Shown: in pieces, positions 3,433 through 54,627 of the stretch
Position numbering within the stretch: position 1 is the stretch's first letter
Layout of the letters: every line of letters begins with the position of its first letter
From: a virus
Virus record (IMG/VR): IMGVR_UViG_3300045988_061949
DNA: 54,627 bases
Strand: one strand, 5' to 3'
The notes under the pieces: model-generated
The model's input: only the letters and a program-made list of their open reading frames with translations
The model's database searches: none
What the model was told of the DNA's origin: nothing
Made by a program: the position numbers and the translations under genes

Positions 3433-4419
3433 TTGATAAAACTACAAGATACAATTATCCAATCTGATACTCAATCAATATTAGATATGCTTAAATTTGA
3501 CCTAGCCCAACATGGAGTTGATAGATTTCATATTTTCAGAAACAATGGTGAAAATGTGCAAACGAATTGTCCTTTCCACAAGAATGGACAAGAGCGAAAA
3601 CCATCTTTTGGTGTAAATGGTGAGATTGATAAATGTCATTGTTTCTCATGTGGCTGGAGCGGTACAATAGAAGAAATGATATCTGAATTATATGGATATC
3701 AAGATGGAGGTAAATTTGGAAAAAGATGGCTAATAAAAAGATTTAATACAGTAGAAATTGAAACAAGACCAAATATAATGGAGGGATTTAATGACAGAAC
3801 GAGTGATATTTATAATCGTAATAGGTGCAATAATATATGCGATAGTGAATATAATAAGGATTGTGATAGATATATTGGAGAACTGGAACTAGATAAGTAT
3901 AGATATATTCATCCTTATATGTATGAAAGAGGATTGACAGATGAAATTATAGAAAGGTTTGATATAGGATATGACAGAGAGCGAAAAGAAATTACATTCC
4001 CAGTTAGAGACACTGAAGGAAGATGTGTTTTTGTTGCTGGAAGAAGTGTCGAGCGAAAGTTCTTCCGACTTCCCAAAGGTCTCGATAAGCCTATCTATTG
4101 CGCAGATAAATTTAGAGGTGGAGCGTATAGAACGGCTTATATCACTGAGTCATTCTTGAATTGTTTAACTTGCTGGAAATATGATAAACCCGCTATGGCT
4201 ATGGCAGGCACCGGAAATAAAAAGCAGTATGAAATATTGAATAAGTTACCAGTGCGGGAATATATTCTTGCATTTGACCCAGACGAAGCAGGAAGAAAAG
4301 CAACAGAAAGATTTAGAAAGAATGTACACGGAAAAATTATAAAAGAACTTGTATATCCAGATAATCGTGATATAAATGATTTGCAAGAAGAATTTTTAAA
4401 TTGCAAAATTATTTTTTAA
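3433..4419 (+). CDS. dnaG: DNA primase (CHC2 zinc finger plus Toprim)
   Basis: CPFHKNGQERKPSF...CHCFSCGWSG zinc finger. Toprim motifs ITESFLN and AFDPDEAGRKA. TTG start. Confidence 0.85.
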   Translation: MIKLQDTIIQSDTQSILDMLKFDLAQHGVDRFHIFRNNGENVQTNCPFHKNGQERKPSFGVNGEIDKCHCFSCGWSGTIEEMISELYGYQDGGKFGKRWLIKRFNTVEIETRPNIMEGFNDRTSDIYNRNRCNNICDSEYNKDCDRYIGELELDKYRYIHPYMYERGLTDEIIERFDIGYDRERKEITFPVRDTEGRCVFVAGRSVERKFFRLPKGLDKPIYCADKFRGGAYRTAYITESFLNCLTCWKYDKPAMAMAGTGNKKQYEILNKLPVREYILAFDPDEAGRKATERFRKNVHGKIIKELVYPDNRDINDLQEEFLNCKIIF

Positions 4420-4426
4420 AAAAGTG

Positions 4427-4482
4427 TTGACAAATCTACTTTTATGTATTACAATATACTTGTAAATAAGAAATACATAAAA
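4427..4482 (+). promoter_or_regulatory. Conserved promoter, copy 1: TTGACA (4427-4432), 17-nt spacer, TACAAT (4450-4455). An 11-bp inverted repeat (TTTTATGTATT / AAATACATAAAA) straddles the -10.
   Basis: Hexamers and spacer counted directly. The same element occurs at six other sites. Confidence 0.8.
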
Positions 4483-4510: not shown

Positions 4511-4765
4511 ATGAAATTTGAAGTTAAAACAACATTAATGGATGGAACAGTTAAATCATTTATTACAAAAGAGTATGACAGTTATAATCCAGATAAGAAG
4601 AAAGTTAATGGATTGTATCAAATAGGATTTGTCAAAGAAGGAAAGAGTAGAAATACATGGATACCTATTGGGGCAGGTGATGAATATGACCATAATGTTA
4701 AAGAAGTTGTTATAACAGAAGCTACAACAGGTAGAAGAATTGAAACAATTACTGCAACACATTAA
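4511..4765 (+). CDS. Hypothetical protein
   Basis: 84-aa ORF with AGAGG RBS. It is the first gene after promoter copy 1. Confidence 0.7.
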   Translation: MKFEVKTTLMDGTVKSFITKEYDSYNPDKKKVNGLYQIGFVKEGKSRNTWIPIGAGDEYDHNVKEVVITEATTGRRIETITATH

Positions 4766-4805
4766 ATAAAAAGTGAAGCGATAACACATAAAACACTAAT
4801 ATATG

Positions 4806-4910
4806 TGAGTGATATGCAAGAGGTTAAAGCAGGCAAAACAAAGAGAACTGGTGAATGAATAACAGCTGTGAACATTCAATACTTCGTGGGTTCGATTCCC
4901 ACTCACTCAC
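4806..4910 (+). tRNA. Atypical tRNA-like element of about 105 nt. Anticodon not assignable by eye.
   Basis: 7-bp acceptor pairing TGAGTGA/TCACTCA. D-arm-like TGC-AAGAGGTTAAA-GCA. Canonical T-arm GTGGG-TTCGATT-CCCAC. However, 53 nt sit where about 22 nt are expected. Confidence 0.35.
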
Positions 4911-4913
4911 CTA

Positions 4914-4980
4914 AAGGAATGTAGAGTATACCAAGAGTTGAAACTGTATGTAAGCTATATACTCATAGATTACATTCCTT
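4914..4980 (+). ncRNA. Long imperfect hairpin between the two tRNA-type elements
   Basis: AAGGAATGTA pairs with TACATTCCTT, and GAGTATA pairs with TATACTC. There is no T-loop and no U-tract. Confidence 0.3.
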
Positions 4981-4982
4981 AT

Positions 4983-5054
4983 AACTCTTTCGCCAAGCGG
5001 TAAGGCACGAGAGTTTGATTCTCGCATTCGTTGGTTCGAATCCAACAAGGGCTG
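4983..5054 (+). tRNA. tRNA-Gln (anticodon UUG)
   Basis: It aligns arm by arm with the bacterial tRNA-Gln layout: TCGCCAAGCGGTAAGGCA D-arm, CGAGA-GTTTGAT-TCTCG anticodon arm, CATTC variable loop, GTTGG-TTCGAAT-CCAAC T-arm. The acceptor stem has one A-C mismatch. No CCA is encoded. Confidence 0.75.
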
Positions 5055-5252
5055 TTATATCCTGGCAGACAAAAGTTGTAAAAAAGCACCGGATATATTA
5101 AATGCGTTGATTGGGATAAGACGGAAATAAAGCTGGGAATACTGTCAAAATGGAATATAAGTGGTTGTGTTTATGGGCTTATACTGAATGTTCTGGAGGT
5201 TGTTCATTCAAAAACTAAAACAACTAACACCAATAAGAAAGGAAGAAGAAGT

Positions 5253-5939
5253 ATGGGAAGAATTAATTATGATGAAGTAGACAAATATGGAAACAATTCA
5301 GACACTGAGTTTCTAAAGCTGGAAAATGATGGAGATTGTGCAACAGTGCAGTTACTTGTACATGATATGGATGATGTTGATATATTCAATTGCCATGAGG
5401 TTGAGGTTGGAAAGTATGATAATGGAAATCCAAAAACCAGACCAGTATCATGTTTAAGAAACTATGATGACCCATTAGATGTATGTCCATTCTGTCAAGC
5501 AGGACTTAAAACAAAAGTAATCATGATGTTATCAATGGTTGACCAGGAGGATGGCAAGATTAAGATTTGGAATCGTGGAAAGACATCTATTCCAAAGATT
5601 AAGAATTTTATAAACCGCTGGGGAGACATGACAGAACGACCAGTAGACATTATAAGAAATGGTAAAAAAGGAGACATGAAAACAACTTATGATATACAGT
5701 TATCACCAGAAGAGCCTATTGATGTATCACAGTATGAGAAGCCAGAATTTTTAGGTGGTTATATCATGGACAAGACACCTGATGAAATGCAGGAGTATCT
5801 TGATACAGGTTCATTTCCTGATACAGATAATGCAGACACTAATCAGGAAGATAATACACAAGTAAGACGTAGAAACACTGAACCACTTCCATCAAGAAGA
5901 GGAGCAAGTAGAGCAACAAGCAGAAGGGCAGGTATGTAA
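5253..5939 (+). CDS. Putative ssDNA-binding protein (gp32-like His/Cys3 zinc arrangement)
   Basis: The spacing of H...C...CPFC resembles the T4 gp32 zinc site. It sits between the primase and the polymerase and has an Arg-rich C-terminus. Confidence 0.4.
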   Translation: MGRINYDEVDKYGNNSDTEFLKLENDGDCATVQLLVHDMDDVDIFNCHEVEVGKYDNGNPKTRPVSCLRNYDDPLDVCPFCQAGLKTKVIMMLSMVDQEDGKIKIWNRGKTSIPKIKNFINRWGDMTERPVDIIRNGKKGDMKTTYDIQLSPEEPIDVSQYEKPEFLGGYIMDKTPDEMQEYLDTGSFPDTDNADTNQEDNTQVRRRNTEPLPSRRGASRATSRRAGM

Positions 5940-5940
5940 T

Positions 5941-6243
5941 ATGAAAAAATTATTTATTAGTCAGCCAATGTTCGGCAAGACAGATGAGGAAATTAAGTCA
6001 GAGAGAAATGAAATTCTACAAAGAGTAAAAGAGAGATATTCAAATGAAGAAATAGAAATCATTGATTCTTTTTTTGAAAATGCACCATATGCCGCAACAC
6101 CATTGTGGTTTTTAGGTAAATCATTAGAATTACTTTCAACCGCTGATATTGTATACTTTGCAAATGGTTGGGAAGAATATAGAGAATGTAGCATTGAGCA
6201 TAAATGTGCAAGGGAATATGGAATCAATATTATTCACGATTAG
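5941..6243 (+). CDS. Nucleoside 2-deoxyribosyltransferase-like (DUF4406-like) small protein
   Basis: LFISQPMFG near the N-terminus and ADIVYFANGWEEYRECSIEHKCAREYG near the C-terminus fit my recollection of that family. Confidence 0.4.
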   Translation: MKKLFISQPMFGKTDEEIKSERNEILQRVKERYSNEEIEIIDSFFENAPYAATPLWFLGKSLELLSTADIVYFANGWEEYRECSIEHKCAREYGINIIHD

Positions 6244-6252
6244 GAGGATTAT

Positions 6253-8511
6253 ATGGCATTATCATTTGCAAGACCAAAAAGCAATGATAAGAATATAATC
6301 AAGAAATCTAAAACAGTAACAAATAGAACAAGTATTAGGAGCGGCGGAAATAATCTTGCCGCTCAAGTACAATCTATAGTTGCCGTTGCTAATCAGAAAT
6401 TAGCAATTCATAAAGATGATTATATTCTTATCAGAGAACCTGACCAACTATATGAATACATGAAAGAAATGAAGCAAGTTGGAGAAGGCGCATTAGATAC
6501 AGAGACAACAGGATTAAATCCATTACTTGTAAATATAGTTGGTGGATGTATTTATACTCCCGGACAGAAAGCGGCATATATTCCTATTAATCATAAATCA
6601 TATATAACAGGTGTGAGAACTAAAGACCAGTTAGATGAACAGACAGTTTCAAAGATTATGAAAGAATTTCATAATGATATTAGATGGGTTTTTCATAATG
6701 CAAAATATGATATCCGAGTATGTAGAAAGACACTTGGAATAGATTTCAAACCTTATTGGGATACAATGTTAGCGGCATACTGTATAGATGAAGAGGAAAG
6801 TCACAGATTGAAAGACTTACATCTTAAATATTGTGATAGCAAAGATACAGAATCATTGACCTTTGATTCTTTGTTTAATGGTGTTATTTTCGACAATATT
6901 CCAATATCAACTGCATATTTATATGCCGCAGGTGACCCTATAAAGACATATGAATTGTATGAGTATCAAAAAACCTTATTAAACAGACGAGTATTAGCTG
7001 GCCCATATAATGTATTCAAGAATATAGAAATGCCTTTGATTTCTGTTGTAGCAGATATGGAAGATAGAGGGGTTTGTTTGGATTTTGATGTTTGTAAAAA
7101 TCTACATGAAAAATATCACGCTATTAGAGAAGAAAGACAAAAACAGGCGGATGAAGCAATAGCAATGTATAAGGATGAAATTGATAATTATAAGATGAAA
7201 AATCCGAATAATAAGTTATCTGACCCTATATCATTATCAAGTCCTACACAGTTGGCTATATTATTCTATGATATTTTAGGATTAGAAAGTCCTGACAAGA
7301 AAGCACCACGAGGAACAGGAGAGGAAATTTTAAAGCATTTTTCAAAAGGTAAAGAAAAGAATCTCTGTGAAGCAATACTTGGAATGAGAAATGTTGAAAA
7401 ATTGTTAGGAACATATATTGATAAAATGCCAGAAATAGCATTAAAAGATGGACGAGTACATGCAAGTTATAATCAGTATGGAGCAAAGACTGGTAGATTC
7501 AGTTCACAAGACCCTAATTTACAGAATATTCCTTCGCACAACAAAGACATTAGACAGATGTTCAAAGCACAAGACGGATATGTTTTAATTGGTGGAGATT
7601 ACAGTCAACAGGAGCCAATGGTTACAGCACATCTTTCTAAAGATAGAAAAATGAAGGAAGCCTTTATGAATGGTAAAGATATATATGCTACAATAGCTTC
7701 ATTAGCTTTCCATAAACCTTATGAAGAATGTAAAGAGTTTAGGAAAGATGGAACAGTCAATCCAGAAGGAAAAGAAAGAAGAACACAAGCTAAAAGTATT
7801 GTATTAGGTATTCTATATGGAAGACAGATTCCTTCTATAGGTGGACAGTTGGGAGTATCTACAAAAGAAGCACAAGGTATATATGATGCTGTTCTTAAAG
7901 CCTTTCCTGAATTGGCACAGTTTATTAAAGATTCACAGAATATGGCAAGAACTGAAGGTTATGTAACTACTGCATGGGGTAGAAGAAGACATTTACATGA
8001 TATGCAGTTAGAGCGATATGAATTTTCATATAATGGAAAAGTAACTAATTTTGACCCATTAGCATTTGGAAGTGAAGTTTCCACGGAAGTTCCTAAGAAA
8101 GTAAAAGACAGTTATATCAAACAACTTGATAAGGTGTTTGGGTGGAAAAAGAAAAATGATATAATTCAAAAAGCATTATCTGAAGGAATTAAAATTAAAG
8201 ATAATGGTGGATTCATATCACAGGCAGAAAGACAATGTGTAAATGCAAGAGTTCAAGGTTCTGCGGCAGATATGGCAAAATTAGCAATGATTTCAATTAA
8301 TAATGATAAAATAATGAAAGAATTAGATTTTCATTTACTTATCTGTGTGCATGATGAAGTAATAGGAGAATGTCCAAAAGAAAACGCTAAAGAAGTTAAA
8401 GAAAGATTATCCTACCTTATGAGAGCAGCTCCATCACACTTAATAGAATTACCTTTCAAATGTGATTGTGAAGTCTCTTATAATTGGTATGGAGAAAGTG
8501 TGGAGGTATAA
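6253..8511 (+). CDS. polA: Family A DNA polymerase with a 3'-5' exonuclease domain
   Basis: Exonuclease motifs LDTETTGL and HNAKYD. Polymerase motif A DYSQQEP, motif B RRTQAKSIVLGILYG, motif C VHDEV. Confidence 0.9.
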   Translation: MALSFARPKSNDKNIIKKSKTVTNRTSIRSGGNNLAAQVQSIVAVANQKLAIHKDDYILIREPDQLYEYMKEMKQVGEGALDTETTGLNPLLVNIVGGCIYTPGQKAAYIPINHKSYITGVRTKDQLDEQTVSKIMKEFHNDIRWVFHNAKYDIRVCRKTLGIDFKPYWDTMLAAYCIDEEESHRLKDLHLKYCDSKDTESLTFDSLFNGVIFDNIPISTAYLYAAGDPIKTYELYEYQKTLLNRRVLAGPYNVFKNIEMPLISVVADMEDRGVCLDFDVCKNLHEKYHAIREERQKQADEAIAMYKDEIDNYKMKNPNNKLSDPISLSSPTQLAILFYDILGLESPDKKAPRGTGEEILKHFSKGKEKNLCEAILGMRNVEKLLGTYIDKMPEIALKDGRVHASYNQYGAKTGRFSSQDPNLQNIPSHNKDIRQMFKAQDGYVLIGGDYSQQEPMVTAHLSKDRKMKEAFMNGKDIYATIASLAFHKPYEECKEFRKDGTVNPEGKERRTQAKSIVLGILYGRQIPSIGGQLGVSTKEAQGIYDAVLKAFPELAQFIKDSQNMARTEGYVTTAWGRRRHLHDMQLERYEFSYNGKVTNFDPLAFGSEVSTEVPKKVKDSYIKQLDKVFGWKKKNDIIQKALSEGIKIKDNGGFISQAERQCVNARVQGSAADMAKLAMISINNDKIMKELDFHLLICVHDEVIGECPKENAKEVKERLSYLMRAAPSHLIELPFKCDCEVSYNWYGESVEV

Positions 8512-8515
8512 AATA

Positions 8516-9373
8516 TTGGAATTGTATTTTGCCGGTGATTGTAATAAGAATGTTGAAGACTTCATGTTTAAGAAGAATTGTAAGAGATTATTTAGTTATT
8601 ACAGAGACCGTAGTTCGATAAAAAAATATATTGAAAAAGGAGGAAAACAAATATTTCTTGATTCCGGCGCTTTTAGTGCATATAACTCAGGAGCAACAAT
8701 TAATATAGATGAGTTGTGTAATTATGCAAATTCTATTTCTGAGTACTGTACATTTATTGCTTGTTTAGATGTTATTGGAGATGCAGAACAATCATATACA
8801 AATTATATCTATATGCGTAGAAAATTAAAAGAACCAAATAAATTAATTGCTTGTTTTCATGCAAATGAACCAATAGAATATTTATATAAATATTTAACTT
8901 ATGTAGATAACTATGGAAAATTATCAAATCTTGCTTTAGGTGGGGTTGCTCAGTTGCCAGGTTCCTCTATTCGTCCTTTTTTGGATATGTGTGAACCTAT
9001 ATGTAGTAAATATCCGGATGTATGGATTCATGCTTTTGGTTTAACCAATTTTCCTCTAGTTGAATGTTATTCTTTTATTGATTCTATTGATAGCACAAAA
9101 CATATTATGCAACCAATATATGGACATTTAATATTACCACCTAAATATAAGTGTATATCAATTGGTAAGAACTCAAGATACAAAGATTATATTTCCACAA
9201 CTGATAATAAGATAATAAAGACTATATGTTCTAAAATAAACTTGACTATCCAAGATTTGATTGATACTGATTGGTGTAGAAGTATTTTTTATGTTGAAGT
9301 TATGTTAGAGTGGTTAAAAAAATATAATGAAAAAAATACACATATTACAGTAAAAAGAAAAAAATTATTTTAA
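8516..9373 (+). CDS. dpdA: DpdA-like DNA-guanine transglycosylase (TGT superfamily)
   Basis: FLDSGAFS, LALGGVAQ and WIHAFGL motifs in TGT/DpdA order. TTG start 9 nt after GGAGG (alternative ATG at 8489). It sits next to queD, queE and folE. Confidence 0.65.
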   Translation: MELYFAGDCNKNVEDFMFKKNCKRLFSYYRDRSSIKKYIEKGGKQIFLDSGAFSAYNSGATINIDELCNYANSISEYCTFIACLDVIGDAEQSYTNYIYMRRKLKEPNKLIACFHANEPIEYLYKYLTYVDNYGKLSNLALGGVAQLPGSSIRPFLDMCEPICSKYPDVWIHAFGLTNFPLVECYSFIDSIDSTKHIMQPIYGHLILPPKYKCISIGKNSRYKDYISTTDNKIIKTICSKINLTIQDLIDTDWCRSIFYVEVMLEWLKKYNEKNTHITVKRKKLF

Positions 9374-9387
9374 GGAGGATATTAATA

Positions 9388-10236
9388 ATGGAAGAAAAAA
9401 AGATTGTGAAAAAAATTGAAGAAGGTATGGACCCACAAGATGTTCTTTGCACCACTTATCAGATGAGAAATTTTTATATGCAGTTTCGAGATGGATTTTT
9501 TTCTAATTTGGATGTGATGAATTATATCCAGCATCATGCAGTTGCTTTGATGGCAAAAAAAGGAATGAATGTTGTGGACGTTTGTTGTGGACGTTCCTTA
9601 GTATTACCTTTGTTAAGATATTATGCCAGGGATATTAATAGTTATACTGGAGTGGATATTTGTTTCACAAATATAAGAGAGGCAAAAAGAGATGCAAGTG
9701 CAAAAGTATTAAAGGAAGAAGACTTGGAAGAATATTATCCATTTAAAACAGATTGGATACTTTCAAATGTAGCAGAAATGTCTAATCATATAGAGAAAGG
9801 TTTTGCTGATTTGGTTATTTACACATCTGCATTGGAACATATGCATAAAGATGTTGGAACACAAAGTCTTATAGAGTGTCATAAGATTATGAATAAAGAT
9901 TCCATTATGTTTCTTAGTTGTCCAAATACTCCAGGAAATGGTTATGAAACACAATATGCCGCACACGTTTATGAATGGGGTTACGATGAATTAAAAGAAA
10001 AACTTAATGAACTTGGATTTGAAATAATCAATGAAGTTGGTTTGGTTATGAAAGTCAAGAAAATGAAAGAGTTTTTCTCCAGTGATAAAGTTTCAAAAGA
10101 TATGAAAGATTTCTATAATAAGATGTCTTTATATATGCCGAGTGCATGGTTGAGCTCCATTGTAAGCATTCCATATCCAAAGGAATCAGATGAAATATTA
10201 TTTATAGTTAAGAAAAAATCTAAGAAACTTTTCTAA
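9388..10236 (+). CDS. Class I SAM-dependent methyltransferase of small-molecule type (not a DPPY or PCQ DNA methyltransferase)
   Basis: Motif I VVDVCCGRS, YTGVDI, and DLVIYTSALEHM. GGAGG RBS. C-terminus KKKSKKLF. Confidence 0.7.
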   Translation: MEEKKIVKKIEEGMDPQDVLCTTYQMRNFYMQFRDGFFSNLDVMNYIQHHAVALMAKKGMNVVDVCCGRSLVLPLLRYYARDINSYTGVDICFTNIREAKRDASAKVLKEEDLEEYYPFKTDWILSNVAEMSNHIEKGFADLVIYTSALEHMHKDVGTQSLIECHKIMNKDSIMFLSCPNTPGNGYETQYAAHVYEWGYDELKEKLNELGFEIINEVGLVMKVKKMKEFFSSDKVSKDMKDFYNKMSLYMPSAWLSSIVSIPYPKESDEILFIVKKKSKKLF

Positions 10237-10243
10237 AAAAGCA

Positions 10244-10272
10244 TTGACAAATATCCTTTTATGTATTACAAT
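10244..10272 (+). promoter_or_regulatory. Conserved promoter, copy 2 (TTGACA-N17-TACAAT)
   Basis: Hexamers at 10244-10249 and 10267-10272. The spacer contains TTTTATGTAT. Confidence 0.8.
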
Positions 10273-10323
10273 ATAAATATATTAAAAAGATAATATGTAT
10301 GACATAAAAGGAGGATTGATATT

Positions 10324-10866
10324 ATGTATTATTTATCAAAGCGAGACAACGCAACAAAAATAAAAGTAGACGAGGGTTATTCTAATGAGAACACTGTAAT
10401 GATTGAATATCTTAATGGACCTAAACAAGGAAAAGCTGTTCCTATCACTCGTAGCACTTTAAAGAGATGGTGGAAAAAAGTTGAGCAAGAAAATACATCG
10501 GTGCAGATGCCTAGTACTGAAAAATTAGAAAATGTTAAAAATGTTTGCCCAATTAAAAAAACAACCAAAAAAATTGACAGAACAGAAGATGTAGAAAAAA
10601 TAGTTAAGATGCTTATTGATGATTATGTGTATAAATATTATGATTCAGTAAATTGTTATAAAGTGTATGATATTATGGCACAGAATCATGTTATTGCAGA
10701 AATATATCCACAAAGAAAGAAGATTGTTTGTTATTTACGTTCTTTAGAAGGTATGGACTTATCAAAAACTATTTTCCACAAGCAAGGTTATAAGTATTAT
10801 CTACCTTGTCGAGCAGATATCTCATATGATGATGATTTTATTTCTATATTGAAAAACTTTTTATAG
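10324..10866 (+). CDS. Hypothetical protein inserted within the deazaguanine cluster
   Basis: 180-aa ORF with GGAGG RBS. Its N-terminus MYYLSKR mirrors the QueD N-terminus MYYVSKR. Confidence 0.7.
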   Translation: MYYLSKRDNATKIKVDEGYSNENTVMIEYLNGPKQGKAVPITRSTLKRWWKKVEQENTSVQMPSTEKLENVKNVCPIKKTTKKIDRTEDVEKIVKMLIDDYVYKYYDSVNCYKVYDIMAQNHVIAEIYPQRKKIVCYLRSLEGMDLSKTIFHKQGYKYYLPCRADISYDDDFISILKNFL

Positions 10867-10879
10867 GAGGATTAAAAAT

Positions 10880-11233
10880 ATGTATTATGTATCAAAAAGA
10901 ATGGAAATAGCAGGAGCTCATCATTTAGAACTCCCGTATGATAGCAAGTGTGAGAATCTGCATGGACATAATTGGATAGTTACTGTTTATTGTAAATCGG
11001 ACAAGCTCACTGATTATGGAATGATTGTAGATTTTACAAAAATTAAAAAAGAGATACACGATAAGTTAGACCATGCTTGTATTAATGATGTTGTGTATCC
11101 TCTTAATCCAACTGCTGAGAATATGGCAAAATGGATATGCAAAAGAGTTTCAGATATCTGTGAAGTTGGTCAGTGTTACAAAGTAGAAGTTCAAGAAAGC
11201 GAAGGCAATATCGCCGTTTATATGGAGGATTAA
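10880..11233 (+). CDS. queD: 6-carboxy-5,6,7,8-tetrahydropterin synthase
   Basis: CENLHGHNW motif, 117 aa, adjacent to queE. Confidence 0.85.
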   Translation: MYYVSKRMEIAGAHHLELPYDSKCENLHGHNWIVTVYCKSDKLTDYGMIVDFTKIKKEIHDKLDHACINDVVYPLNPTAENMAKWICKRVSDICEVGQCYKVEVQESEGNIAVYMED

Positions 11234-11237
11234 AAAA

Positions 11238-11882
11238 ATGAAAGTAGTAGAAATATTTAAGAGCATTGATGGTGAGGGTAAGCGAGCTGGCTTACCTACC
11301 ACCTTTATAAGATTATTTGGATGCAATTTGAATTGCTCTTATTGTGATACACGATATGGGTGTGAAGGAGAAGGATATTCAATTATGAGTATTCCACAGA
11401 TTGTTAATGCAGTGGAAAGAGGTGGCATTCATTCAGTAACAATAACTGGAGGAGAACCTCTTGTGCATCCAGGTATTAATAAACTTGTTAATATATTATT
11501 GGAAAAAGGTTACTGGGTAAATATCGAGACTAATGGTTCACAGTACATTGGAAAATTTCCAGTAAATCCACTTTTATTCTTCACCATGGACTATAAATGC
11601 CCTTCAAGTGGTATGGAAAATCATATGGATTGTCATAACTTTAGATTACTGTCAAGGAATGATGTGCTTAAATTTGTTGTAGGTAGTCAGGAGGATTTGA
11701 ATAAAGCATTACAAGTTATTGAGAAATATAATCCACATGCACAGATATATTTTAGTCCAGTATTTGGTGAAATTGAACCTAAAGAAATAGTGGATTATTT
11801 ATTAAAGCATAAGATGTATGACTGTAAAGTTCAGATTCAGTTACATAAGATTATATGGAATCCAAATGAGAGAGGTGTCTAA
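11238..11882 (+). CDS. queE: 7-carboxy-7-deazaguanine synthase (radical SAM)
   Basis: [10 protein letters not shown] radical-SAM cluster motif, ITGGEPL, 214 aa. Confidence 0.85.
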
Positions 11883-11884
11883 CA

Positions 11885-12457
11885 ATGATTGATAAGAAAA
11901 GAATAGAGAAAGCAATCAAGGAAATATTAATTGCATTAGGAGATGACCCAGATAGACCGGGACTTGTAGATACACCAAAGAGAGTGGCAAAGATGTATGA
12001 AGAAGTATTTGAAGGTATGAATTATACTAATGCAGAAATTGCAGATAAATTCTGTAAATGCTTTGATACTGATAATAATGATTTAGTTGTTGTACAGGAT
12101 ATTCCAATATTTAGTTACTGTGAACATCATTTAGCTCTTATGTATAACATGACTGTTTCTATCGCTTATATACCTAATGGCAAAGTATTAGGATTAAGTA
12201 AGTTTGCTCGTATTGCTGATATGGTTGGAAAGCGACTACAGCTTCAGGAGAGAATAGGTTCAGATATTGCTGAGATTGTACAGATGGCAACCGGTTCAAA
12301 TGATGTATTAGTAGTTGTACAAGGAGAACATAGTTGTATGACTGCAAGAGGTATCAAGAGTCGAGGAGCTAAGACAAGAACAGCCACTATAAGAGGTGAG
12401 TTCAATGATAATGTTGAATTAAGAAAAGAAGCTTATTCATTAATGAACTTGAATTAA
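11885..12457 (+). CDS. folE: GTP cyclohydrolase I
   Basis: CEHHL, QLQERI and GEHSCM motifs. Confidence 0.9.
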
Positions 12458-12469
12458 AGGAGGAACAAA

Positions 12470-13564
12470 ATGAAAGTAGTAACAAGCAGAATGAAAGAAG
12501 CAGTAAACAAAGCAATTAAAGGAGCAGGATTTAATAATCTTATTCCTATTACCTCAATGATAGGTATTAAGTTATCAGATGGAAAGTTAAGATTGCTTAC
12601 AACAGATATGACTAATACATTATGTATTATCATCGACAAAGTAGCCGGAGACGATATGGACATCACAGTAGATGCAGATAAGTTTGGAAAATTGATTGCA
12701 AAGACAACATCTGAGGATATTGACTTATCTGTAAAAGATGATGTACTTTTTGTAAAAGCAAATGGAACTTATAAGATTCCATTGATTTCAGATGAGGAAG
12801 GACTTATCTCATTCCCAGATATTAAGTCAATGGACGATAAGAATGTGCAGTGTATGACTAAGCTGTCAAGCGTTATGCAGGCCTATAATATTAATAAATC
12901 AGCACTTGCAAAGACATTAGAAAATCCAGCTTTAACTGGTTACTATTGTGGGGATACTGTTATTAGTACGGATGCAAATGTAATCACATTCAATGGATTT
13001 AAGATGTTTGATTGTGAACAGCCAATTCTTATTTCCGCTCAGCAGATGCAGTTATTGACACTGAATACAAAGGAAGATATTGTGGTTTTTATAGGAAGAA
13101 CGAGTATTCAGTTTGTGACAGAAGATGTGGTTATTGATGGGGCATTAATGGAGGGAATTGAAGATTTCCCAGCTAACGAGGTAAACGCTTATCTTGATGA
13201 GGCATTTACATCTTCCTGCAAAGTACCAAAGGATTTACTTCTTTCCGTACTTGATAGACTTGCATTATTCATTGAGCCTTATGATAAGAATGGAGCATAT
13301 TTCACATTTGGAAGAAAAGGTATTAATATTCATAGTAAAAAGGATGCTTCAACAGAGACTATCAACTATGTAGAAAGTAAGGACTTTGAACCATTTGTAT
13401 GTTGTGTAGATATTCCAATGCTGAAAGAACAGTTGCAGGCTAATCCAGATGATATAGTGAAGATTTGCTATGGAAATGAAAATGCTTTGAAGATTGAGAG
13501 TGGAAAAGTAACACAGGTTATAGCTTTGCTTGAGGATGAAGAATTAGATAATAAATCTGAATAA
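12470..13564 (+). CDS. dnaN: Sliding clamp (DNA polymerase III beta-like)
   Basis: 364 aa. The N-terminal pattern (IPITSMIGIKLSDGKLRLLTTDMT ... VDADKFGKLI ... SFPDI) parallels DnaN domain I. Confidence 0.6.
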   Translation: MKVVTSRMKEAVNKAIKGAGFNNLIPITSMIGIKLSDGKLRLLTTDMTNTLCIIIDKVAGDDMDITVDADKFGKLIAKTTSEDIDLSVKDDVLFVKANGTYKIPLISDEEGLISFPDIKSMDDKNVQCMTKLSSVMQAYNINKSALAKTLENPALTGYYCGDTVISTDANVITFNGFKMFDCEQPILISAQQMQLLTLNTKEDIVVFIGRTSIQFVTEDVVIDGALMEGIEDFPANEVNAYLDEAFTSSCKVPKDLLLSVLDRLALFIEPYDKNGAYFTFGRKGINIHSKKDASTETINYVESKDFEPFVCCVDIPMLKEQLQANPDDIVKICYGNENALKIESGKVTQVIALLEDEELDNKSE

Positions 13565-13609: not shown

Positions 13610-13706
13610 GTGACAGATTAGGATAGGTTTCTTAGCCGTTCTTTTCGTTCATTACGTTTACCTCCTGTAAAAATCCTCTTAGTTTAAATACTAGGAGGAT
13701 TTTTTA
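13610..13706 (+). ncRNA. Candidate small RNA of about 95 nt, running from the promoter to an intrinsic terminator and carrying a CCTCCT anti-SD
   Basis: No ORF. Bounded by the 13575 promoter and the 13672 terminator. CCTCCT at 13661-13666. Confidence 0.4.
13672..13706 (+). terminator. Rho-independent terminator
   Basis: AATCCTCTTAG / CTAGGAGGATT stem (one G-U pair), 8-nt loop, followed by a T-run. Confidence 0.8.
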
Positions 13707-13726
13707 TGTATTTTTATAAAAAACTA

Positions 13727-13755
13727 TTGACAAATATAGTTTTATGTATTACAAT
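13727..13755 (+). promoter_or_regulatory. Conserved promoter, copy 3 (TTGACA-N17-TACAAT)
   Basis: Hexamers at 13727-13732 and 13750-13755. ATGTATT lies upstream and AATACAT downstream. Confidence 0.8.
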
Positions 13756-13808
13756 ATAAACATAATAAAACAAAGAACAAAATACATAAAAAACAGGAGG
13801 AACAAAAT

Positions 13809-18703: not shown

Positions 18704-19716
18704 GTAACCTTGATTTAATTATAAAAGATTTGAATAAGAAAATGAAAGTAGGAAATATTCAGTTAGGAGTAGATTTCCAGGAAGTTCAGAAGATTCCTTT
18801 TTCATCTTGTAGATTAAATTATATGACATATGGTGGTATTCCAGTTGGAAGAATAGCAGAGTTTTATGGCGCAGATGGAAGTGGAAAGACCACTACTGCT
18901 ATTGATGTAGCTGGAAATGCTCAAAGAATGTTTCCAGATAAGAAAGTGTTATTTGTAGACATTGAACATACCTTTGATTCTTGCTGGGCAGCAAAGCTAG
19001 GATTGAATTGTGACGATATTATATATCTTGACCCTGATAGTATGGGAGCAGAAGATGTTTTTAATATTGTTAAAGAACTTATAGAAAGTGGTGAAATAAG
19101 TATATGCATAATGGATAGTATAGGTGCTATGGTTTCTATGCAGGCTAATGAAAAACAGATAGGTGAAAGAACATATGGTGGCATAAGTATGCCTTTAACA
19201 GAGTTTGCAAATAAAATAGCTCCAGTTTTATCGAGAACTGATTGTGTGCTTATAGGAATTAATCAAGCTAGAGATGATATGAATAGTCCTTATGGAGGTT
19301 CAACAACACCCGGAGGAAGAGCTTGGAGGCATGCTTGTAGTACTCGTCTTGAATTTAGAAAAGGAAATTATATTGATGAAAAAGGTAATAATCTTTCAAG
19401 AGCTTGTGAGAATCCAGCAGGAAATATAGTGAATGTAGCATTAGTGAAATCTAAAGTATGCAGACCTGATAGAAAAGTAGGATTTTACACTTTGAAATAT
19501 CTTGAAGGAATTGACTATGTATCAGATGCAGTTGATGTAGCTATCAAGATGGGATTAGTTGTACAAGGTGGTGCATGGTTCTCTTTAGTTGATATTGAAA
19601 CAGGTGAAATATTAAGCAAGTATCAAGGTAAATCAAAGCTAGTTGAGTATCTAAAAGAAAATGATAATTACACAGATTTCTATTCAAAATTGGAGAAATT
19701 ATTAAATGAAGAGTAA
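18700..19716 (+). CDS. RecA-family recombinase
   Basis: Walker A GADGSGKTTTA, Walker B ICIMDSIGA, 338 aa. Confidence 0.75.
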   Translation: MSNLDLIIKDLNKKMKVGNIQLGVDFQEVQKIPFSSCRLNYMTYGGIPVGRIAEFYGADGSGKTTTAIDVAGNAQRMFPDKKVLFVDIEHTFDSCWAAKLGLNCDDIIYLDPDSMGAEDVFNIVKELIESGEISICIMDSIGAMVSMQANEKQIGERTYGGISMPLTEFANKIAPVLSRTDCVLIGINQARDDMNSPYGGSTTPGGRAWRHACSTRLEFRKGNYIDEKGNNLSRACENPAGNIVNVALVKSKVCRPDRKVGFYTLKYLEGIDYVSDAVDVAIKMGLVVQGGAWFSLVDIETGEILSKYQGKSKLVEYLKENDNYTDFYSKLEKLLNEE

Positions 19717-20212
19717 TGCATATTTAAACGGACAAGATATATTGAATTGGTATAAGACACCATTTGAAATGGAGTTTACGGATAAAGGGTTCCCCATATT
19801 GGAACCCTTAAAGTCGTTATCTATACCAAGGCGAGGATTGAGAACACTGCCTTTCAATTATGCTTTATCTAATACGGATAAGGATTATTTTATGCATTTC
19901 TATATACAAGATTATCTATTCAATAGAATATGGAATAATCCTCAACGGTATATTGATGTACTGAAAGATTATAAAGGAATTGTGATGCCAGATTTTAGTC
20001 TTTATACAGATATGCCTGAACCCTTGCAAAGATTTAATCATTATCGGAATTTGTGGTTTGCTAGAATGTGTCAAATTCAAGGAATTACAGTTATTCCTTC
20101 TCCTAATTGGTCAACAAAGGATAGTTTAGAATGGTGTCTTGATGGAATACCGAAAGATAGTGTTATTATGTTATCCGCAGTGGAAACACATATAAATCTG
20201 AGTTTGGTTTGA
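19706..20212 (+). CDS. DUF4417-like protein, possibly truncated
   Basis: HFYIQDYLFNRIW ... MPDFSLYTDMP ... YRNLWFARMCQ pattern, recalled from memory of that family. Confidence 0.5.
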   Translation: MKSNAYLNGQDILNWYKTPFEMEFTDKGFPILEPLKSLSIPRRGLRTLPFNYALSNTDKDYFMHFYIQDYLFNRIWNNPQRYIDVLKDYKGIVMPDFSLYTDMPEPLQRFNHYRNLWFARMCQIQGITVIPSPNWSTKDSLEWCLDGIPKDSVIMLSAVETHINLSLV

Positions 20213-20552: not shown

Positions 20553-20572
20553 ATGTATTTTTATAAAAACTG

Positions 20573-20601
20573 TTGACAAATATAGTTTTATGTATTACAA
20601 T
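20573..20601 (+). promoter_or_regulatory. Conserved promoter, copy 4 (TTGACA-N17-TACAAT)
   Basis: Hexamers at 20573-20578 and 20596-20601. The downstream 5' UTR is near-identical to copies 1 and 5. Confidence 0.8.
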
Positions 20602-20646
20602 ATACTTGTAAATAAGAAATACATAAAAATAACGGAGGTAATAATT

Positions 20647-20826: not shown

Positions 20827-20876
20827 AACTTTACAAAAATGGGAGCTTGAAATTTTCTAAGATGGAGAGAACGCAC

Positions 20877-21158
20877 ATGACAAATACAGCAATTATATTA
20901 GGATATATGCAATTAAATAATTTAGACCCAACTAAAATAATCTTACATACATATGCACAATGGAAGAATTTAGGTTATCAAGTAAAGAAAGGCGAAAAGT
21001 CAAAACATAAGATTACAGTGTGGAAACGTTCAACAAAGAAGATTGAGAACGAGGATGGAGATAAAGAAGAAGTTGATACCGGAAGATATTTTTTAAAAGA
21101 GCCTGCATTCTTTACACAAGAACAAGTAGAGAGGATAACCAATGAAAGAGATATTTAA
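20877..21158 (+). CDS. ArdC N-terminal-like ssDNA-binding domain protein
   Basis: YAQWKNLGYQVKKGEKSKHKITVW resembles the ArdC_N signature. GGAGAG RBS. Confidence 0.45.
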   Translation: MTNTAIILGYMQLNNLDPTKIILHTYAQWKNLGYQVKKGEKSKHKITVWKRSTKKIENEDGDKEEVDTGRYFLKEPAFFTQEQVERITNERDI

Positions 21159-25023: not shown

Positions 25024-25279
25024 AGATGTTACAAGAAGATTTGATAATAGCAAATTCTACAAAGGCAAGTACAAAAAGTTTGAATGTATGATAAATTACT
25101 CATCAAATTTAGATTGTTGGTACTACTGCATAGATTCTAATGATGAAAGGGATATACGCTACAACAGTTTATGGGATGAAGTAAACTTTAAAACTCAAGA
25201 AGATTGTATAAAAGGTTGTCAGGCTTATATTGATGAGGTGATTATTAAAAATGCAAAAATTTCCAAGAAGATGGGATAA
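25013..25279 (+). CDS. Hypothetical protein
   Basis: 88-aa ORF with overlapping start. Confidence 0.55.
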   Translation: MRLKDVTRRFDNSKFYKGKYKKFECMINYSSNLDCWYYCIDSNDERDIRYNSLWDEVNFKTQEDCIKGCQAYIDEVIIKNAKISKKMG

Positions 25280-25619
25280 ACTCACTTGTATCAATTTTTT
25301 ACAAAGAAAAATAATAATACTATCTATAGCTTATTACGAATTAAGCCAAAATCTAATAGATGACTCATTATTTGATAAGTACTGTAAACAGCTTGTGAGT
25401 ATGCATAAGGAGCATGGAGATATATCAGACACAGAATATGGATATGCTTTTGGGAATGATTTTGATGGAAGTACCGGATTTTATTTATATTATAATCTCA
25501 ATGAGCATGATAAAGAATATTTATATCATATTACTTATCATATTATTCATAATAATTCATTTCCTGAAGCTATTTCTGTAACCCAGCAAACATCTAAAAA
25601 GAAAGGAAAGCTATTCTAA
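25251..25619 (+). CDS. Hypothetical protein ending in KKKGKLF
   Basis: 122-aa ORF. The start is uncertain. Its C-terminal tail resembles those of DpdA and the methyltransferase. Confidence 0.55.
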   Translation: MQKFPRRWDKLTCINFLQRKIIILSIAYYELSQNLIDDSLFDKYCKQLVSMHKEHGDISDTEYGYAFGNDFDGSTGFYLYYNLNEHDKEYLYHITYHIIHNNSFPEAISVTQQTSKKKGKLF

Positions 25620-26772: not shown

Positions 26773-26802
26773 TAAATTTTTATGTATTTTTATAAAAAAG
26801 TG

Positions 26803-26831
26803 TTGACAAATCTACTTTTATGTATTACAAT
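26803..26831 (+). promoter_or_regulatory. Conserved promoter, copy 5 (TTGACA-N17-TACAAT)
   Basis: Identical to copy 1 over roughly 60 nt, including the 5' UTR. Confidence 0.8.
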
Positions 26832-26876
26832 ATACTTGTAAATAAGAAATACATAAAAAACAGGAGGAACAAAGAT

Positions 26877-50266: not shown

Positions 50267-50286
50267 TTTTAATGTACATAAAACTA

Positions 50287-50315
50287 TTGACAATAATAGT
50301 TTTATGTATTACAAT
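50287..50315 (+). promoter_or_regulatory. Conserved promoter, copy 6 (TTGACA-N17-TACAAT)
   Basis: Hexamers at 50287-50292 and 50310-50315. An ATGTACATAAAA box lies upstream. Confidence 0.8.
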
Positions 50316-50347
50316 ATAAATAAATTAAAGAAAGGAGAAATTATATA

Positions 50348-52063: not shown

Positions 52064-52083
52064 ATAAAAAATACATAAAACTA

Positions 52084-52112
52084 TTGACAATTATATTTTT
52101 ATGTATTACAAT
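52084..52112 (+). promoter_or_regulatory. Conserved promoter, copy 7 (TTGACA-N17-TACAAT)
   Basis: Hexamers at 52084-52089 and 52107-52112. An AATACATAAAA box lies upstream. Confidence 0.8.
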
Positions 52113-52153
52113 ATTAACAAAGAAACATATATATCATTTTTGGAGGATTAAAA

Positions 52154-54140: not shown

Positions 54141-54627
54141 ATGCAAATGGTACACAATGAAAATTATATAACAATCCAAGGTTGGATGATTAATGAATTA
54201 GGATTAAAAGGAAACTCATTGATTATATATGCTACTATTTATGGATTTTCTCAAACTAATAATTGTGAATTTACAGGCAGTGCTAATTATTTAGCTCAAT
54301 GGTGTGGGTGTTCCAGACAGACAGTTATGACAGTACTTAATAAGCTGATTGCAGACAATTTGATTATAAAACATGAAGAATTTAGAAACAATGTCAAGTT
54401 TTGCTCATATGGTGTAAATTTGACAGGATGTCAAAATTCTTTACAAGGGGATGTCAAAAAATTTGACAAGGGAATGTCAAAAAATTTGACAGGGGGATGT
54501 CAAAATTCTTTACATAATAATATAGATAAAAACAATAGAAATAAAAATATAGAAGATATTATAGATAAGAAAAATTCTAAAAAGAAATCTAAAATTGATA
54601 TTAAAATCGAATCTATAGAAAAAAAAT
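54141..54627 (+). CDS. N-terminal part of the replication initiator / replisome organizer. It continues at base 2 across the junction.
   Basis: AAGGAGAA RBS. wHTH-like N-terminus (SANYLAQWCGCSRQTVMTVLNKLIADNLI). The frame is still open at the window end. Confidence 0.75.
   Translation, partial: MQMVHNENYITIQGWMINELGLKGNSLIIYATIYGFSQTNNCEFTGSANYLAQWCGCSRQTVMTVLNKLIADNLIIKHEEFRNNVKFCSYGVNLTGCQNSLQGDVKKFDKGMSKNLTGGCQNSLHNNIDKNNRNKNIEDIIDKKNSKKKSKIDIKIESIEKK
54428..54516. repeat. Four iterons with an exact 23-bp period (ATGTCAAAA cores at 54428, 54451, 54474 and 54497). They are built from TTGACA/TGTCAA inverted pairs.
   Basis: Positions counted directly. A fifth, partial copy (ATGTCAAG) starts at about 54390. 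Confidence 0.85.
54539..54627. repeat. Second copy of the 89-bp terminal repeat
   Basis: Identical to 1-89. Confidence 0.95.

Follow-up and report, generated by a model that had tools for sequence, protein, structure and literature searches.

We analyzed a 7-deazaguanine DNA-modification gene cluster in a viral DNA stretch of 54,627 nt (IMG/VR record IMGVR_UViG_3300045988_061949; the whole stretch is hereafter the window), all genes of the cluster being on the plus strand (Table 1). The region is best explained as an anti-restriction DNA-modification module with a conserved functional core of two enzymes, a DpdA-like DNA guanine transglycosylase and a class I S-adenosylmethionine (SAM)-dependent methyltransferase (MT) encoded next to it, and the MT probably serves deazaguanine modification of DNA as a partner dedicated to DpdA. 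7-Deazaguanine in DNA is a major phage counter to restriction enzymes and also blunts Cas9 cleavage in vitro. Only DpdL, DpdM, and DpdN have been proposed as tailoring enzymes beyond the Que pathway, and of these DpdM alone is validated, with very low yields. A DpdA-linked class I MT would be the fourth, found in several apparent phyla (as assigned to metagenome bins) and in very common Faecalibacterium prophages of the human gut. The cluster type, 7-carboxy-7-deazaguanine (CDG) in DNA (dCDG), the methylated base mdPreQ1, and variants without QueC are already known; a class I MT as an obligate partner of DpdA, its spread in gut prophages, its fusion to ParB, and clamp-binding-like tails on both enzymes do not appear to have been described in the searchable literature.

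Linkage of the methyltransferase to DpdA

We compared the window with about 160 loci encoding relatives of the MT, taken from three partly overlapping sets: 71 viral contigs, 11 bacterial or archaeal genome assemblies, and 80 metagenome loci, the last being those closest to the window MT (61–98% identity), with very distant architectures represented through the genome collection only. DpdA adjoins the MT in 82 of the 82 loci from the viral and genome collections, and is adjacent or <2 kb away in every metagenome locus with enough flanking sequence. The linkage spans MTs from 98% down to 32% identity to that of the window, loci from 28% to 72% GC, at least 10 gene architectures, and bins assigned to Bacillota, Chloroflexota, Pseudomonadota, and Patescibacteria, together with one archaeal bin. 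In the divergent groups the open reading frames (ORFs) upstream of the MT are DpdA by PHROG (E = 8e-57 and 1e-45). Two loci that at first seemed to lack the linkage conform to it: in L168, a pair of divergent DpdA-like genes immediately precedes the MT (phrog_887, E = 1e-14 and 1.4e-13), and L098 is only 3.5 kb long, a fragment of a locus of the L097 type, where DpdA sits 1.9 kb upstream. The pair stays together despite heavy mosaicism; in L004, for example, the MT is 97% identical to the window MT while the DpdA is just 32% identical to its counterpart, and in L014 the two ORFs overlap. The MT is thus tied to deazaguanine genes more strongly than a sequence-only reading of the window had proposed.

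The same observations bear on whether the MT is unrelated to DNA modification, being instead an RNA or tRNA, metabolite, or anti-defence methyltransferase that merely travels with DpdA. Its PHROG matches are generic (“methyltransferase”), with borderline matches to “tRNA methyltransferase” in relatives, as such a role would allow. Given the adjacency to DpdA across architectures, phyla, and GC contents, the overlapping ORFs in L014, and the ParB–MT fusion described below, we consider this explanation very improbable.

The window DpdA matches phrog_887 (“queuine tRNA-ribosyltransferase,” E = 2e-34) and no Pfam family. In tblastn it aligned with the DpdAs of phages MS1, Dp-1, and 9g at 27–31% identity (E down to 1e-31), the closest phage relatives being Streptococcus phages MS1 and Dp-1 (27–30% identity; BLASTP against Dp-1 DpdA, E = 5e-26). 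An alignment of eight DpdAs (window, 9g, MS1, and five from related contigs) shows no variation at D49, S50, D85, G88, H115, H172, S190, and D192, and the catalytic motifs typical of tRNA-guanine transglycosylases are present (the DSG Asp and the second Asp/Ser-Asp). The motifs IFLDSGAFS, LALGGVAQ, and VWIHAFGL can be read in the translation, and the start ATG at 8516 matches the MxLYFAG N-termini of homologs in the alignment. These features point to a member of the phage DpdA family, which would exchange guanine in DNA for a 7-deazaguanine.

The MT scored above the Pfam cut-offs for Methyltransf_23 (35 bits, cut-off 27) and Methyltransf_11 (28.5 bits, cut-off 21.2). VVDVCCG and SALEHM are present in its translation, motif I (DVCCGRS) and D90 are conserved, and the family shares further motifs beyond the SAM region: CTTYQMRN, MNYIQH, YTSxxEHMH, and SCPNTPGNGYxTQYxAHxYEWGY. 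Neither (D/N/S)PP(Y/F/W) nor PCQ occurs in the 282-residue translation, and by its motifs the protein is not a classical DNA methyltransferase of the N6A/N4C or C5 type. The AlphaFold2 model has a class I Rossmann fold with alternating beta and alpha elements (predicted local distance difference test score 86), and Foldseek against PDB returned 1007 matches at E ≤ 1e-3, nearly all of the top matches listed being class I methyltransferases. We also sought the acceptor atom among these structural neighbors, where it is unreadable, all matches being generic class I folds with a TM-score of ~0.5. The sequence-only reading was correct in placing six ORFs in the order DpdA, MT, an inserted ORF, QueD, QueE, and FolE, with the motifs it quoted, in assigning the cluster to the 7-deazaguanine DpdA type, which the family assignments of DpdA, QueD, QueE, and FolE bear out, and in noting that the MT lacks DPPY, NPPY, and PCQ.

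The MT family is small, with 245 of 1.84 billion cluster representatives matching at E ≤ 1e-3 and 41 at 1e-30. No member was found in 50,697 deposited phage genomes, where the single remote match has 23% identity, and megablast of the region against the same 50,697 records gave no match; the absence of the family from these genomes explains why it has been missed. DpdA matches occur in 187 phage records, just one of which has even a remote MT match. We found no paper in the searchable literature on a class I methyltransferase adjoining DpdA, and the family itself appears to be undescribed. The remote match in a deposited phage (L090, MW202621, 4854–5603, annotated “capping protein”) was set aside as too distant to inform function. 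It has no DpdA adjacent and lies near genes for a pyrimidine hydroxymethylase, a dCMP deaminase, and an NTP-PPase-like protein, a putative DNA-hypermodification locus of a different kind.

Several variants of the DpdA–MT region were seen among the relatives. In L075 (8001–8123), a close relative, PolA is followed by a 41-residue N-terminal remnant of DpdA and then by FolE and DnaN, with DpdA, MT, QueD, and QueE lost; this deletion variant indicates that the module is dispensable and turns over. Tandem DpdA paralogs stand by the MT in L171 (three, 8446–11029), L097 (two, 724–2262), and L168 (two, 4535–6621), and they may differ in sequence or substrate specificity. One sub-lineage has a conserved ORF of ~166 residues between DpdA and the MT (L079, 9466–9966; L157, 2526–3026; L154, 844–1341), which ends in ...KLF and in its L079 copy matches DUF6884 weakly (E = 2e-4). 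One protein in which the MT is fused to a tail sheath (P0121) was judged to be an assembly or gene-calling chimera.

Supply genes and the base offered to the pair

Three supply genes were identified in the window: QueD (TIGR03367, 90.2 bits, cut-off 89.25), with CENLHGH as a genuine CxxxHGH motif; QueE (TIGR03963, 275 bits, cut-off 260.1), with the cluster motif CNLNCSYC; and FolE (NF006826, 243 bits vs. 162; TIGR00063, 188.7 bits vs. 181.6). A six-frame phmmer --max search with MS1 QueC and 9g Gat-QueC as queries recovered neither (best E > 2), while the positive controls QueD, QueE, FolE, and DpdA were all recovered. A profile hidden Markov model built from four phage QueCs reached E = 1.7 at best over the whole window, no frame of the six contains an SGGxDS motif, and a Pfam scan of the non-structural plus-strand ORFs included no QueC (PF06508), QueF, ArcS, GATase, or ParB. 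Queries with QueF-like, QueT, and YhhQ-type proteins did not match the window. Only one T-fold ORF exists in the six frames, and it carries the QueD motif and not LxxxHRHxF, so that there is no DpdL; DpdM (DUF3109) does not match the MT and is absent from the 54.6-kb genome.

An exact 89-bp direct terminal repeat (1–89 = 54539–54627) indicates that the genome is complete, either circularly assembled or terminally redundant, and near-identical genomes of this type were independently assembled as contigs of 54.5–54.8 kb from at least four samples. Because of the repeat and these independent assemblies, the description of the window as a complete genome without QueC holds: QueC is truly absent, as are QueF, Gat-QueC, and ArcS, and the phage-encoded pathway therefore ends at CDG. 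Such a pathway is not new, since dCDG and DpdA phages without QueC have both been published: Cui et al. (2023, PMC10516641) reported dCDG in viral DNA, as well as phages with DpdA, FolE, QueD, and QueE and without QueC that use a QueD paralog, DpdL, and contain dDG. Cellulophaga phage phiST, which contains dDG, resembles the window in having FolE, QueD, QueE, and DpdA without QueC in a cluster by a polymerase gene (PMC10516641). It differs in encoding DpdL, a second T-fold protein with LxxxHRHxF, and a DpdA3; in the window the only T-fold protein bears CxxxHGH, DpdL is missing, and DpdA is of the 9g/Dp-1 type.

The genes that accompany the pair differ widely among relatives. ParB-DpdA-MT-QueT, with QueT as the sole supply gene, is the majority arrangement (67 of 82 loci and about 50 metagenome loci); these QueT-only loci number more than 100, belong to Faecalibacterium-type prophages and phages, and include a complete Faecalibacterium prausnitzii chromosome, and many of the contigs are labeled human gut metagenome. 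YhhQ-type transporters occur in nine loci, two of which have a QueF-like T-fold gene as well (ParB-DpdA-MT-QueF-like-YhhQ in L087; MT-QueF-like-YhhQ in L167); in L154, L157, L162, L165, and L166, ParB or PolA precedes DpdA-MT and a YhhQ/Vut_1-type transporter follows, and L101 and L102 have DpdA-MT-QueC-YhhQ. A genuine QueC is present in L079 (PolA-DpdA-x-MT-QueC-QueD-QueE-FolE; TIGR00364, 163 bits, cut-off 150), and QueC homologs occur in L101, L102, and L171, the last with the order PolA-QueD-QueE-FolE-QueC-MT and then three DpdA genes. About 20 loci besides the window have DpdA-MT-QueD-QueE-FolE without QueC, with PolA or ParB upstream where that flank is present, and L086 and L088 have FolE with DpdA and MT only. 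QueC leads to preQ0 and QueF to preQ1, and YhhQ transports preQ0 and preQ1. PreQ0 and preQ1 are the only intermediates compatible with all of these settings, which indicates that CDG is not the common substrate.

The QueT loci bear further on the substrate. QueT is a transporter of the energy-coupling factor type and moves preQ1 exclusively, and queT of F. prausnitzii is under a preQ1-III riboswitch (PMC11625349). Phage Dp-1, which has a QueT gene immediately upstream of its DpdA gene, contains dPreQ1 and no detectable dPreQ0 in its DNA (PMC6884629). MTs in the QueT-only loci, where no CDG-making gene is present, are 61–71% identical to the window MT and have the same motifs, so that a CDG-specific role in the window would require a different substrate for these close relatives in more than 100 loci. 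L099, with no QueC and a window-like layout, has an MT 71% identical to that of the window and a DpdA 50% identical to that of Dp-1.

The sequence-only reading had the phage pathway stop at CDG, left a choice between insertion of CDG itself and use of host QueC, and suggested that the MT makes a methyl ester. The first statement stands for the phage-encoded pathway; CDG as the inserted base is not supported, given the QueT-only and QueC-containing loci, and of the two branches that of host QueC is the better supported. According to the ester proposal, CDG is the base that DpdA inserts, and esterification of its 7-carboxyl group by the MT yields dCDG methyl ester, at least in members without QueC. 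There is precedent in CmoM and Trm9, class I enzymes of the Methyltransf_11 type that methyl-esterify carboxylated tRNA nucleobases, and the absence of QueC from the complete genome and about 20 related loci is as the proposal would have it. Published DpdA clusters without QueC always carry the CDG-processing DpdL, and DpdA2 of Vibrio phage VH7D inserts CDG at low efficiency in a queC deletion strain (PMC10516641). Against it, related MTs stand with QueT alone, with QueC (L079, L101, L102, L171), or with QueF-like and YhhQ-type genes (L087, L167), and in L099, itself without QueC, DpdA is 50% identical to that of Dp-1, whose DNA carries dPreQ1. Among 28 divergent MTs, the residues conserved outside the SAM motifs are Q25, M26, N45, H49, E150, H151, Y190, H193, and E196, and the sole conserved basic residue is R69, within motif I; the family thus has no Arg or Lys outside motif I to hold a carboxylate. 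A conserved set dominated by His, Glu, Tyr, Asn, and Gln would suit an amine acceptor better than a carboxylate, a soft indication from residue pattern. We consequently hold the ester to be distinctly unlikely, and this part of the sequence-only reading is not supported, though its attention to the MT was justified.

Two further genes near the supply genes deserve mention. In L066 (10365–11153) and L165 (7439–8242), the cluster has immediately downstream of it a MetK-like gene, corresponding to the N-terminal part of SAM synthetase (phrog_1569; TIGR01034, E = 1e-13), which may help provide SAM to QueE and the MT. L168, a high-GC relative, has a small phosphoribosyltransferase-like gene (7901–8260; phrog_8995, E = 1e-18) between MT and QueE.

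Probable action on DNA and the proposed pathway

Two observations suggest that the MT acts on DNA. First, in P0160 (690 residues) a ParB-like N-terminal domain (~18–104) and a DpdA-linked MT (~413–649) are naturally fused into one protein, and in temperate-type loci a ParB_N gene precedes DpdA. Second, LF is the C-terminus of just three of the 86 window ORFs, where chance would give 0.24, namely DpdA, MT, and a ligase-like protein (Nlig-Ia, 25251–25619), with K/R-x-L-F tails at 9350–9370, 10213–10233, and 25596–25616, respectively. In the PolA/DnaN-encoding relatives checked (L003–L010, L079, L154, L157, and L171), every MT has K/R-x-L-F at its end, and each DpdA read as an intact ORF keeps the tail, the DpdA frame of L003 being split; the DpdAs of MS1 and Dp-1 bear it as well. 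The tail was absent in five of five ParB-linked loci checked. We infer that the tails are sliding-clamp-binding-like peptides, for which the phage DnaN is a putative dock. Action of the MT at the DNA level is, on these grounds, probable.

The bacterial Dpd system, with the order DpdB-DpdA-DpdC, offers a parallel, DpdC being a DNA-level tailoring enzyme, the hydratase that converts preQ0 to 7-amido-7-deazaguanine. ParB-DpdA-MT in temperate relatives mirrors this order, and the P0160 fusion supports a physical or functional complex. The phage loci differ in that a methyltransferase replaces DpdC, the context is that of phages and prophages, and no DpdD–K restriction genes were seen; the window itself is without ParB.

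The same evidence bears on the timing of methylation. The MT might act on the free base, for example converting preQ1 to N-methyl-preQ1, with DpdA then inserting the product. Its fold and Pfam families are typical of small-molecule methyltransferases, and it has no separate DNA-binding domain; DpdL has been proposed to be a free-base enzyme (PMC10516641), and the PF08241 methyltransferase HuiC acts on free preQ0 (bioRxiv 10.64898/2026.04.15.718813). The ParB–MT fusion and tails that the MT and DpdA have in common and that are restricted to DNA-associated proteins argue for the opposite order, as does DpdM, which is proposed to act on DNA-borne dPreQ1 (PMC10516641), and we rate methylation of the free base as quite unlikely.

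We propose the following pathway, in which methylation follows insertion. FolE, QueD, and QueE, whose chemistry is established for their families, would raise the supply of CDG. QueC and QueF of the host would convert CDG to preQ0 and then to preQ1, a dependence proposed because the phage has neither gene, and the weakest link of the pathway. DpdA, docked on the clamp, would swap guanine for preQ1 behind the replication fork, as family-level knowledge of DpdA suggests, and the MT, likewise docked, would methylate the 7-aminomethyl nitrogen of dPreQ1 to give mdPreQ1 or a more methylated form. Recruitment to DNA in temperate relatives seems to fall to a ParB/DpdB-like partner in place of the clamp tails. 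The tails and the ParB fusion would then suggest how base exchange after replication is linked with the replisome or with loading of ParB. The recurrence of cap guanine-N7 methyltransferases among the full-length structural and profile neighbors of the MT, described below, is compatible with a pocket that would offer position 7 of a flipped purine to SAM. We give the full chain, with dPreQ1 as the substrate of the MT, a probability of about 0.45.

The MT would in this pathway be a nonhomologous functional analog of DpdM (DUF3109), which methylates dPreQ1 to mdPreQ1, a known phage DNA base (PMC10516641). DpdM, known from phages phiSM (Cellulophaga) and VH7D (Vibrio), is likewise encoded within its cluster and shares the proposed function, SAM-dependent methylation of dPreQ1 placed in phage DNA by DpdA (PMC10516641). 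It is a YkgJ-like protein with Cys metal-binding motifs and a “unique fold,” whereas the window MT is a class I Rossmann protein and not homologous. If the product is mdPreQ1, the MT would be a nonhomologous replacement and may be the means of making efficiently a base that DpdM yields only in traces; if it is something else, it would be a new natural DNA base.

Several points weigh against the proposed pathway. QueC and QueF are both missing from the window and from the ~20 loci without QueC, so that two host enzymes are needed, and all published DpdA phages without QueC process CDG directly through DpdL (PMC10516641), an analogy that would favor a CDG-derived product here. The specificity of the phage QueT copies for preQ1 is taken by analogy from a review (PMC11625349), and a scan of the window, L014, L080, L084, L085, and L087 returned only tRNAs at Rfam gathering thresholds, with no preQ1 riboswitch upstream of phage QueT. 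Identification of QueF-like genes in L087 and L167 is weak (25–27 bits, where a true FolE scores 25.8 bits with the same model), clamp docking is read from a motif, and the Foldseek neighbors of the MT are generic, none of them being close (TM about 0.5).

A different acceptor atom is the other explanation to be weighed: the MT may work with DpdA on O6 or N2 of the deazaguanine, on N7 of the target guanine, or on a neighboring base, and N7-methylation of the outgoing guanine would make it a better leaving group for the exchange. The MT accompanies DpdA whatever 7-substituent the supply genes imply, which fits an acceptor common to all, and its most specific neighbors in sequence and fold are cap guanine-N7 methyltransferases (Ecm1, Abd1, and vaccinia D1; PF03291). 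These account for the five best PDB sequence-profile matches (best E = 7.7e-5, residues 43–104 only, the region of the SAM motif) and recur among full-length Foldseek matches in PDB and BFVD. HuiC, from the huimycin cluster, shows that a class I PF08241 methyltransferase can act on a 7-deazaguanine base, methylating free preQ0 on O6 (bioRxiv 10.64898/2026.04.15.718813); compared here by description only, it differs in using the free base and in belonging to an actinomycete secondary-metabolite cluster without DpdA. The likeness to cap enzymes, however, is below threshold (18 bits, gathering threshold 26.6; TM ~0.53; 10–15% identity) and the context is unrelated, so that the MT is not a member of PF03291. 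Furthermore, O6-methylation would upset base pairing in a genome, N7-methylated deoxyguanosine is chemically labile, and most DpdAs function without an MT, as the 187 DpdA records with one remote MT match attest. We consider a different acceptor, the leaving-group variant included, unlikely.

Whichever acceptor is used, the product could lie outside the eight known bases, as di- or trimethylated (permanently charged) dPreQ1, dCDG methyl ester in phages without QueC, or a ring- or O-methylated deazaguanine; we offer this tentatively. Faecalibacterium prophages abundant in the human gut, and their relatives, would in that case carry a new hypermodified guanine, made by a pair of enzymes tethered to the clamp or to ParB.

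Genome layout and neighboring genes

The cluster and its flanking elements are listed in Table 1.

Table 1 Features of the DpdA–MT region of the window
Feature	Coordinates	Strand	Basis or remark
PolA, family A DNA polymerase (context gene)	6253..8511	+	PolA-DpdA-MT order conserved in group A relatives
DpdA-like DNA guanine transglycosylase, 285 residues, C-terminus ...VKRKKLF	8516..9373	+	phrog_887, tblastn, conserved columns
Class I SAM-dependent methyltransferase (MT), 282 residues, C-terminus ...KKSKKLF	9388..10236	+	Small DpdA-linked family
Lineage-restricted uncharacterized ORF, 180 residues	10324..10866	+	Inserted between MT and QueD
QueD (6-carboxytetrahydropterin synthase)	10880..11233	+	TIGR03367; CENLHGH motif; not DpdL
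QueE (7-carboxy-7-deazaguanine synthase, clostridial type, radical SAM)	11238..11882	+	TIGR03963
FolE (GTP cyclohydrolase I)	11885..12457	+	NF006826, TIGR00063
DnaN-like sliding clamp	12470..13564	+	Weak DNA_pol3_beta match; synteny with MS1 and Dp-1 DnaN genes
Promoter-like site TTGACA-17-TACAAT	4427..4455	+	One of seven repeat copies; probable start of PolA-DpdA-MT unit
Promoter-like repeat copy (TTGACA 10244–10249, TACAAT 10267–10272)	10232..10296	+	Heads the uncharacterized ORF-QueD-QueE-FolE-DnaN unit
Terminator-like hairpin	13669..13704	+	Ends the QueD-QueE-FolE-DnaN unit; next promoter repeat 13727–13755

A promoter-like element of 65–87 nt, with conserved flanks around TTGACA-17-TACAAT, occurs in seven copies (4415–4479, 10232–10296, 13715–13779, 20561–20625, 26791–26855, 50275–50339, and 52072–52136), three of which have ~25 nt of downstream sequence in common. 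The copies are probably phage promoters of a single temporal class. Together with the terminator-like hairpin, they make PolA-DpdA-MT and the uncharacterized ORF-QueD-QueE-FolE-DnaN look like two consecutive transcription units.

The second unit begins with the uncharacterized ORF. Relative to L009 and L010, the window carries ~620 nt more (promoter repeat and ORF) from the end of MT to the beginning of QueD, and the ORF is thus an insertion, as had been read from the window. Its start MYYLSKR (10324–10344) nearly repeats the QueD start MYYVSKR (10880–10900), and from this likeness the insertion seems to have duplicated the beginning of QueD. The ORF is missing in L009, L010, and L066, which retain the MT and QueD/QueE/FolE, and QueC occupies its position in L079. 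All 36 homologs lie within this phage lineage, and no Pfam, PHROG, or other family match was obtained. In the AlphaFold2 model a disordered linker connects two small beta-rich domains, and no structural match is significant, the best Foldseek E being 0.065, with weak likeness to YjbR and to the MotA DNA-binding domain. We rejected the ORF as a cryptic QueC or other enzyme, as it has no P-loop, no catalytic-looking invariant residues, and no enzyme-like fold.

The wider genome resembles those of Dp-1 and MS1 (Hutinet et al. 2019, PMC6884629), the phages with the closest DpdAs: both have FolE, QueD, and QueE and place DpdA beside the replication genes, with DnaN and a RecB-like nuclease downstream; they also encode a Dp-1-type holin, RecA, and clamp-loader proteins, and their DpdA has a C-terminal tail ending in ...RLF. 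They differ in having QueC and a transporter (QueT or Vut_1), with a QueF-like gene in Dp-1 also, and no methyltransferase, whereas the window has the MT and the inserted ORF and no QueC, QueF, or transporter. The Pfam scan identified DnaB, primase, DnaN, RecA, three clamp-loader subunits, a YopX protein, DUF4417, an ArdC-N-like domain, TerS, a Dp-1-type holin, and an SNF2 helicase.

The window encodes a single tRNA, tRNA-Gln with anticodon TTG (4982–5055). We considered whether phage tRNAs belong to the queuosine family and rejected the idea, the tRNAs of group B phages being tRNA-Gly, tRNA-Gln, and tRNA-Thr. In the early region, an ORF with an ArdC N-terminal (anti-restriction) domain (20847–21158) and a DUF4417 ORF (19706–20212) may be further counter-defence genes.

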